NCBI RefSeq assembly: GCF_004010195.1
Contig: NC_057718.1
Span: forward strand, 103,408,733-103,446,421
Reading direction: 5' to 3'
Origin: Chiloscyllium plagiosum
Lineage: Eukaryota
DNA: 37,689 nt
Shown: piece after piece, positions 8,403 through 9,980 of the stretch
How positions within the stretch are numbered: position 1 is the stretch's first letter
Layout of the letters: every line of letters starts with the position of its first letter
Made by a program: the position numbers and the translations under genes
Notes under the pieces: generated by a model
The model's database searches: none
Told to the model about the DNA's origin: nothing
Seen by the model: only the letters and a program-made list of their open reading frames with translations

Positions 8403-9796
8403 TACGAAAGGAGTCATGAAACCCTGTTAGGGCTCAATGCTCTTCTGAAGATAGCTCACCGTTACTGCGTCTGGAGGTAGAAACTGGCGGCTTTTCCTGA
8501 GGTTCAATTAAAATCAGGATCCAGAGGGCAACAGAAATCAGGCGGGCAACGTGGAAGGGTGACATGTACGGCTCAACAAAGGGCTGGAAAGTTTGTGTGA
8601 AACCTGCAGAACATCTGAGACTAAGGTTCACTTTACTATTTCCTGGGATGAAATGGCTGCGCTATAAAAGGAGAGGTTGGTGCAATGTCATTTCAGAGAT
8701 GGTCTTGTTGATCCTCTCGTTTTTCTTTAGCCTCAGACCAATTCTCCAAACACTCAATGTGTATCAGTAGTTAAACGTCTTGCTGTATTCTATCACAGTG
8801 CACAGTTTGGAGTGCTGCCCTTTATTTAAGATGATTCCCCTTGAGACAGCAAGTTAAAAATAAATTGAACAAATCGGCAAAGTCAAATACAGAACTTTGC
8901 CATCCTTTCAACAGGTCAGTATGCCATATGATAGCAGTGTACAAATGCAAACAGTTTGCTCTAATATTCTCATTTCTGCTGCTAAAGAGTACAAGTGTTA
9001 ACTGTTACAAATAAATAATTTCACACCTTTCTCTAAAACAGTAAAGAACCTCAGGCAGAGCCTTGTTCCTCTTACACTAGTATTTTATGGTAAAATGATA
9101 GTGCCAATGTTTTGTTTGGTTCTGACTATGTAACTTCAAAACTGTCTTCATTTCCAAAACATAAGGGGTTGTGAGAAGCCTTTACTTATTTTTGTTTCCT
9201 TACCCTGAAAGATTACAGTTGTACATCACCAAGACTGGACCATAGTAAAGTCAGACCAATTCTAGCAGAAGCGAGAAGGAGCTCAAAGAGTTTGTTAAAA
9301 TAAAAACAGGTGAAAAACATGGCAAAGGTGTTTAGTAATGAGAGAGGATCTCATTTGTCCCACTGCACCTGAACTGCAACCCTGAACCAGTTAGTTAGAC
9401 AAACACCTATTAGTGACTTAGACACATCAAGCATTACCTTATAAATAACTGAACGTTCCCCAAGCAATGCCAACCCCTTCGCCCTCTTCGACAGGTAATC
9501 AAAAACATCTACAGCAAATTCACACCAAGCCATGCACCAGGAAGTTGTCACAGTAGCAGAGAGTAAAAGCTGGGAAGAAAACTCTAAAATTCAATCAAAT
9601 AAATAAATATTAACGTTTAATTCAGCTTTTAAAATAGAATGCCCTTAACGCAGGACATCGAGCTATAAGTTACTATCATTAAAAAAAAGTCTAAAAAGTT
9701 GGAAGATATCATGTAAGGTAAACTTATTAGTTTGGTTATGGCAGGAAAGTCCTATTTTAATTTAGTGGTCAGTCATTCCCAGCATTGAGTGTCTAT

Positions 9797-9885
9797 TTAT
9801 TTACCAGTTAATGGCTCTCCCAGTGAATGGCTTGAGGATGATTTTCGCCTGTGTGACTTGAATACAGTTACTATTGGGGACTTGC
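9797..9885 (-). other. In-frame extension of the MEIS exon (GKSPIVTVFKSHRRKSSSSHSLGEPLT|GK*): alternative 5' splice site or terminal exon
   Basis: Open frame from the GC donor (9885) to ACTG|GTAAAT (exon end 9805) is 81 nt in the same phase; TAA at 9797-9799; AATAAA at 9796-9801 on the minus strand. Confidence 0.6.
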
Positions 9886-9944
9886 CTGCTCGATTAGATT
9901 GGTCAATCATAGGCTGGACTATCCTTCTCCTGGCATTTATAAAC
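9886..9944 (-). CDS. MEIS: MEIS-family TALE homeobox gene, 59-bp internal exon (homeodomain helix 3 end; equivalent to mammalian MEIS1/2 exon 10); paralogue unresolved
   Basis: Encodes (W)FINARRRIVQPMIDQSNRA, identical to MEIS1/2; acceptor ttccacAG|G; 59 nt; phases 2/1; donor CAG|GCAAGT. Confidence 0.95.
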
Positions 9945-9980
9945 CTGTGGAAAAGGAGGAGAAAAGAAAGGTTACTTTGA
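9945..9980 (-). promoter_or_regulatory. 3' splice site: branch-point-like AGTAAC, polypyrimidine tract and AG
   Basis: Minus strand reads AAAGTAACCTTTCTTTTCTCCTCCTTTTCCACAG. Confidence 0.85.

Follow-up and report, generated by a model that had tools for sequence, protein, structure and literature searches.

Layout of the Meis1 exon 10 locus

The window, by which we mean the whole stretch of 37,689 nucleotides that was analyzed, belongs to the shark Meis1 gene. In a protein comparison the best match was the bamboo-shark RefSeq model P0003, with 27 residues identical. When P0003 was placed exon by exon along its contig (C9), exon 10 was the only one of its exons held by the window; exon 11 starts 33,357 nt past the GC donor (acceptor at 103385260). 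At their C-terminus, the solved MEIS homeodomains finish with exactly the peptide that exon 10 encodes. The features of the locus are listed below, with a slash marking each exon–intron boundary.

Ending at 9945, minus strand: acceptor AG of exon 10, read from the sequence.
9886..9944, minus strand: Meis1 exon 10, 59 nt, which codes for the last part of helix 3 of the homeodomain (W-FINARRRIVQPMIDQSNRA); read from the sequence and contained in P0003.
9878..9888, minus strand: upstream GC donor CAG/GCAAGTCC (codons A-G-K-S), the major donor (roughly 75%); junction contigs in 3 of 4 runs, 8 of 11 U1 matches, -7.4 kcal/mol.
9805..9885, minus strand: exon 10', 81 nt, 27 codons, the ancestral, alternatively spliced coding segment; identified by its frame, homologues and junctions.
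9797..9807, minus strand: downstream GT donor CTG/GTAAATAA, the minor donor (roughly 25%); junction contigs in 3 of 4 runs, 8 of 11 U1 matches, -5.3 kcal/mol.
9796..9801, minus strand: AATAAA at positions +4 to +9 of the GT donor, a candidate poly(A) signal read from the sequence.
9690..9795, minus strand: conserved non-coding block that opens intron 10 (core 9794-9735), common to the Meis2 paralog and a mammal-like read-through ORF.

The GC of the upstream donor (CAG/GCAAGT) occupies 9885-9884 and the GT of the downstream donor (CTG/GTAAAT) 9804-9803. Between them, exon 10' reads in frame and without a stop from 9885 to 9805 as GKSPIVTVFKSHRRKSSSSHSLGEPLT. Reading on across the GT donor gives GGT AAA TAA, with the in-frame TAA at 9799-9797. 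Further into intron 10, the conserved block holds ACTAAA at 9766, ATTAAA at 9761 and a U-rich tract from about 9700. The original prediction had described this layout (exon end, GC donor, 81 stop-free nucleotides, GT donor, TAA and AATAAA) exactly.

Intron 10 of shark Meis1 (C9:103385260-103418617) spans 33.4 kb; its counterpart in the Meis2 paralog is 2.4 kb long, and those of the human and mouse Meis1 genes measure 1.1–1.2 kb (table 1 of PMC3140891). Shark Meis1 exon 11 (L006, C9:103385260) has an alternative upstream acceptor 19 nt away, compared with 21 nt in Meis2, and the spacing of 19 rather than 21 nt puts the GFLLDPS extension out of frame. The minus-strand stretch 10319-10281 of intron 9, some 340 nt ahead of the acceptor of exon 10, matched a mammal-like genomic ORF at 10 of 13 residues (E 0.12) and is probably a conserved non-coding element. 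Introns 9 and 10 also contain decayed LINE-type reverse-transcriptase ends (37515-36862, 12966-12712, 7935-7293 and others), which we take to be CR1/L2-like, and a dispersed repeat that is also present at locus L007. No Rfam family was found in the window.

Use of both donors and conservation in the shark paralogs

For the RNA analysis, 4 of 22 listed runs were examined, one each from four studies and from unspecified tissues, all of them in the form of contigs. The RNA status of the runs was guessed, all 18 small-share runs being treated as presumed RNA; contigs that span the 33-kb junction argue for RNA as the material. In three runs from three studies (X6, X2 and X9), contigs leave the window both at 9886 and at 9805, and at both positions the loose ends run into exon 11, agreeing with its first bases at 29 of 29 letters in runs X6 and X2 and at 28 of 29 in X9. 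The depths of the two arms (9886/9805) were 77.2/27.5, 39.4/12.1 and 70.5/21.1 in X6, X2 and X9, which corresponds to 10' inclusion of 26%, 24% and 23%. Each value is a ratio of two contig-arm depths at a single place within a run, the least objectionable way of using depth, but the estimate of about 23–26% is rough, depth being a poor measure of abundance. Neither junction was present among the contigs of the fourth run, X13, which comes from a related organism with an unchanged hexamer; this run yielded one unspliced contig, from 9878 to 9691, at a depth of 3.3. Both splice forms are expressed, and 10' lengthens the protein by 27 amino acids, placed just behind the homeodomain, in, very roughly, one-quarter of transcripts. 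The predicted junctions at 9886 and 9805 were therefore both seen, each joined to exon 11, in three of the four runs, and the first two products that had been proposed, the normal protein and the form longer by 27 residues, have junction support; both had already been published as exon 10/10'.

By itself, neither the open frame nor the hexamer is remarkable: 15.5% of the 81-nt windows in nearby intron are stop-free, and the window holds 19 copies of AATAAA on its minus strand, or 0.5 per kb. The pattern of GC donor, spacer and GGTAAATAAA had three matches in the 3.56-Gb genome, namely Meis1, the Meis2 paralog (C10) and an unrelated place on C29; a reversed control of this pattern had none in the same genome. 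The Meis2 paralog is 82% identical to Meis1 over 9947-9796 and has retained both donors (the GC site and the GT site, CTG/GTAAATAAA), set 81 nt apart and with the frame intact. Because the pattern is rare in the genome, is conserved in the paralog and has both donors joined to exon 11, the arrangement is not a product of chance. Between the two shark copies, 10' differs at 6, 6 and 9 first, second and third codon positions, with 11 non-synonymous and 6 synonymous codon changes, a bias that suggests only modest constraint at the protein level between these paralogs. A third Meis-type exon 10 (L005:1355-1450, on the unplaced contig C101618) has a GT donor and no 10'; this locus is probably Meis3. 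The presumed Meis3 locus on C41 contains N gaps.

An ancient alternative donor after the homeodomain

Alternative 5' splice sites of exon 10/10' in Meis/hth were described by Irimia et al. in 2011, who reported GC at 46% of the boundaries at the upstream donor position, regarded the event as a bilaterian innovation and found the 10' sequence conserved into non-bilaterians, where it lies within one exon (PMC3140891). Four features place shark Meis1 in this system: the host is a Meis gene with its exon 10, the upstream donor is GC, the segment is in frame and homologous, and both donors lead to exon 11. The position of the site after the homeodomain, the phase (1) and the absence of 10' from the third paralog agree as well with the published account (PMC3140891). 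Homology to the cnidarian and bilaterian peptide was judged from database proteins. The species list of that study includes no shark, and the word "shark" does not occur in the available text of PMC3140891. Shark Meis2 keeps 10', and the available text of the published account contains no discussion of poly(A) or of a stop at the donor. With inclusion of about 23–26%, subject to the roughness of that estimate, the shark lies nearer to pattern 2 of Irimia et al. (amphioxus, hemichordates) than to pattern 3 (vertebrates, very low).

The peptide is present in protein models of sharks, rays, a chimaera, gar, teleosts, frogs, birds, turtles and mammals, and also in those of hemichordates, molluscs, nematodes and cnidarians, and it is exactly 27 codons long in nearly all vertebrate copies. 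Predicted MEIS1/MEIS2 isoforms with GKSP[IV]VTVFKS include XP_043552609.1 (isoform X1), whose 27-mer is identical to that of the bamboo-shark models P0003, P0131, P0168 and P0171; the RefSeq and Ensembl isoforms of this kind are predictions, and in sharks none of them ends at GK. The similar GKSP.VTVFKS peptide that had been put forward for predicted tetrapod MEIS isoforms is present in many database models. The spread of 10' from cnidarians to mammals also bears on the proposal that the switch predates the split of sharks and bony fishes: the switch is indeed older, but the date is far too young, the event being bilaterian and the peptide reaching down to cnidarians. For the same reason, the polarity implied by an "insert" of 27 residues is reversed, since 10' is the ancestral sequence, which cnidarians include constitutively, and it is the canonical short protein that is derived. 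For Meis2, Irimia et al. scored 10' as lost in mammals and interrupted in chicken (PMC3140891), although an open 27-codon 10' survives in some mammal and bird Meis2 copies (P0081, P0111, P0122, P0153, P0157 and P0159).

In an alignment of 48 proteins selected because they carry 10', F351 and G343 are invariant and V348, V350, K352, R355 and K357 are at least 90% conserved, so that a hydrophobic and then basic core is the conserved part, and these residues persist all the way from cnidarians to mammals. AlphaFold predicts a helix from 317 to 342, followed by pLDDT values below 50 from residue 344; 10' is thus predicted to be disordered directly after helix 3. None of the solved structures contains 10', the six PDB sequences all ending at or before ...QSNRA. 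The basic RRK patch had been called NLS-like or kinase-like. The basophilic-kinase consensus is [RK][RK]x[ST] and the core of a classical monopartite NLS is K[KR]x[KR]. Scored with these patterns, 63 of 100 distinct 10' peptides, that of the window included, carry the kinase pattern and 2 of 100 the NLS core. Of the two suggestions, the kinase pattern therefore fits better, and 10' as a rule lacks the core of a classical monopartite NLS. A predicted MEIS NLS lies in the homeodomain (PMC13379096). We suggest that 10' would serve as a disordered, basic, Ser/Pro-rich linker from homeodomain helix 3 to the activation region, and that this linker would tune MEIS1 through phosphorylation or through contact with DNA or a partner.

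Exon 10 of shark Meis1 very probably carries two competing 5' splice sites that are the published 10/10' event; the junctions, the frame and the conservation, in the paralog as well as across animals, are observed. The codons for Ala-Gly-Lys-Ser spell CAG/GNAAGT, and a donor at this place inside 10' would remove 10' from most transcripts. The GC donor, with otherwise near-consensus pairing to U1, would win about three times in four, and the GT donor 81 nt downstream, with a non-consensus A at +5, about one time in four, both being joined without a change of phase to exon 11 at a distance of 33 kb. A simple and crude calculation gave U1 duplexes of -7.4 kcal/mol at the GC site and -5.3 kcal/mol at the GT site; the stronger duplex at the GC site is in line with donor use of about 3:1. 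The switch may lie in the wobble position of the Gly codon, such that GA would provide no donor (10' constitutive), GC a weak one (10' alternative) and GT a strong one (10' lost). At least 79 metagenome loci, which are related to each other, comprised 5 coral-type loci with GA and an intact 10', 45 genomic loci with GT and no 10', 9 that look spliced and 20 off the pattern. No vertebrate-type 10' was found among these listed loci, and neither a GC case nor a GT case with 10' among the genomic ones.

The non-coding block that follows 10' is conserved. Its similarity to the Meis2 paralog was equaled by 0 of 5000 shuffles and 0 of 742 window chunks, the copy of 9794-9690 in shark Meis2 being shifted by 35 nt. 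A back-translation test against eight ORFs was clear for two (0 of 150 shuffles as good), among them the mammal-like read-through ORF, and weak or null for the other six. The block may be a splicing element or an enhancer. On the minus strand, 9794-9690 contains GGGAA...TTTCC, which might pair into a weak hairpin, as well as GGACTTTCC, which we take to be close to a kappa-B site. Folding of 10' together with the intron gave no sign of a conserved RNA structure: the folds differ between the paralogs, and Meis1 has only a hairpin of -5.2 kcal/mol.

This block enters into a different reading of the vertebrate 10', which we regard as quite unlikely. It holds that 10' is a decaying relic, with the GT junction as tolerated leakage and the sequence kept mainly by an overlapping element at the RNA or DNA level, made up of the context of the GC donor and the conserved block. 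The independent losses of 10', at least nine in number, and the very low levels at which tetrapods and zebrafish include it (PMC3140891) would fit such decay, as would the degenerate but open copies in the mammal-like Meis2 ORFs P0111 and P0122, the modest synonymous bias between the shark paralogs, the non-coding block adjoining 10', and the GT donor without 10' at L005. However, a decaying segment does not sit well with a length that hardly ever departs from 27 codons in vertebrates, with the same residues from cnidarians to mammals, or with inclusion near one-quarter in three shark studies. The exon 10/10' switch is real, expressed, ancient and already described. What our analysis adds to it is modest: the inclusion of about one-quarter in the shark, the retention of 10' in shark Meis2, the conserved block of intron 10 and a lead on transcripts that end in this intron.

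Transcripts that may end in intron 10

The third predicted product, an intronically polyadenylated protein ending ...PLTGK-stop, is without direct support. Among 43 named chondrichthyan Meis1/2 models with exon 10, 31 carry 10' and continue, and none ends at GK. No poly(A) ends were found in the four runs, which is a weak test because contigs drop rare and short branches. In a tally that counted ORF ends as stops, 11 of the 22 genomic read-throughs had an ORF that closed at the codon after GK, and none of the 14 full-length read-through models did; in the remaining 11 genomic and all 14 full-length cases, Y, W, C, S or I replaces the stop. The stop is present in sharks, in one basal teleost and in many mammal-like ORFs of both Meis1 and Meis2. 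Where the stop is replaced, the donor hexamer is lost with it, so that the cases with annotated truncated models are precisely the ones that lack this hexamer. No full-length protein ending at or just after GK was found in tetrapods or sharks (21 matches/48 candidates; 1/8), in searches of proteins clustered at 90%, which hides short isoforms, with at most 15 members listed per cluster. None of the four translated novel mouse Meis1 long-read transcripts contains 10' (PMC13379096, S2 Data); two Ensembl transcripts and a further, non-coding one in that mouse set come without a protein.

Teleost annotations point in another direction. RefSeq models of nine teleost species end in intron 10 after 10' (P0070, P0183-P0190, P0194, P0196), and three teleost read-through models, plus one degenerate case, are named without an isoform number. 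The teleost Meis1b models that end inside intron 10 also include P0191 and P0206, and the tails differ in frame and length. Intron retention or artefacts of annotation may account for these models. The RT-PCR primers of Irimia et al. span exons 10–11 (PMC3140891), so transcripts ending in intron 10 would have been missed by that design. We found no paper on a Meis form polyadenylated in intron 10 or on the GKSP peptide in the open-access literature, most subscription journals lying outside it; four supplement files of Singh et al. 2018 have no MEIS1 or MEIS2 entry, the available text of PMC7759197 holds nothing on either subject, and that of PMC12946277 concerns exons 1 and 12.

A functional truncated MEIS form arising from intron 10 appears doubtful to us, and we give still less credence to the idea that the AATAAA overlapping the donor is the conserved trigger of this form. 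Set out in full, the three-way switch, which we hold unlikely, would make exon 10 plus 10' a composite terminal exon as well: with the GT donor free of U1, the AATAAA beneath it, or ATTAAA at 9761, would be used, and the product would keep the homeodomain intact, lack the activation region and probably act as a competitive inhibitor. Such a switch might explain why 10' is conserved and yet rarely spliced in tetrapods. The hexamer lies inside the U1 footprint, which makes its uses in splicing and in polyadenylation mutually exclusive. The two shark paralogs share CTGGTAAATAAA without a difference, and the X13 organism has the same hexamer, but a match of the paralogs at the four unconstrained positions has a probability of about 0.2 by chance, and the first 100 nt of the intron are all conserved. 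The overlap of AATAAA and donor may be a by-product of a donor inside a conserved block, and we would read G-K-stop and AATAAA mostly as by-products of a phase-1 GTAAAT donor in that block; G-K is the reading of any phase-1 GTAA[AG] donor.

Half of the genomic read-throughs, mammal-like Meis1 and Meis2 included, do end after GK, and the other half exclude the hexamer at that position, as do all full-length models. The models of nine teleost species that read past the 10' donor to a stop in intron 10 would fit the three-way switch, although their variable tails may have the origins given above. Long introns behind weak donors favor intronic polyadenylation, and the shark Meis1 intron measures 33 kb. 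Hexamers are available at 9801 (AATAAA), 9766 (ACTAAA) and 9761 (ATTAAA). No U/GU-rich element follows AATAAA, the U fraction being 0.20–0.30 over the next 60 nt; a fraction of 0.6 is first reached at 9695-9676, where it would suit ATTAAA at 9761 only loosely. The unspliced X13 contig passes both hexamers without a tail. The shark models and the mouse long-read transcripts weigh against the truncated form in the same way. Its invisibility to primers in exons 10 and 11, and the absence of the word "polyadenylation" from the main text of PMC3140891, would be consistent with its having been overlooked.

We return to the two competing donors and consider whether 10' could have a second use besides splicing. 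It seems improbable, but conceivable, that 10' is a module spliced into about one-quarter of shark transcripts, the low tetrapod level being a later loss, that also serves as the terminal exon of transcripts ending in intron 10. U1 occupancy of the donor that hides the hexamer, aided by the conserved block, would then set the level of the truncated form. The mode of function of 10' was left as an open question in 2011 (PMC3140891), and such a module, if true, would answer why 10' is conserved yet rarely seen, assays across exons 10–11 being blind to it. MEIS1 matters in leukemia, in the limb and the eye and in restless legs, and its output is tuned through its C-terminus. With its apparent inclusion of about one-quarter, the shark is a vertebrate in which the 10' isoform is abundant, and this eases a test of function. 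The teleost annotations lie outside the reach of the original RT-PCR design, and the transcripts they suggest, if real and translated, would provide a natural dominant-negative MEIS1.

The secreted/membrane switch of IgM mu is a composite-terminal-exon case of intronic polyadenylation. Shark Meis1 resembles it in a weak 5' splice site, a long intron and an intronic stop with a hexamer; it differs in that the hexamer lies within the donor and that neither a well-placed downstream U/GU element nor a poly(A) product was observed. MEIS1A, which has a stop in exon 12a, and the homeodomain-less MEIS1D / MEIS1-HdL are further truncated forms of MEIS (PMC3140891; PMC13379096; PMC3157405). These forms are like 10/10' in that splicing tunes the C-terminus of MEIS. 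They keep exon 11 or lose the homeodomain, whereas a product ending in intron 10 would keep the homeodomain and lose exon 11 onward.
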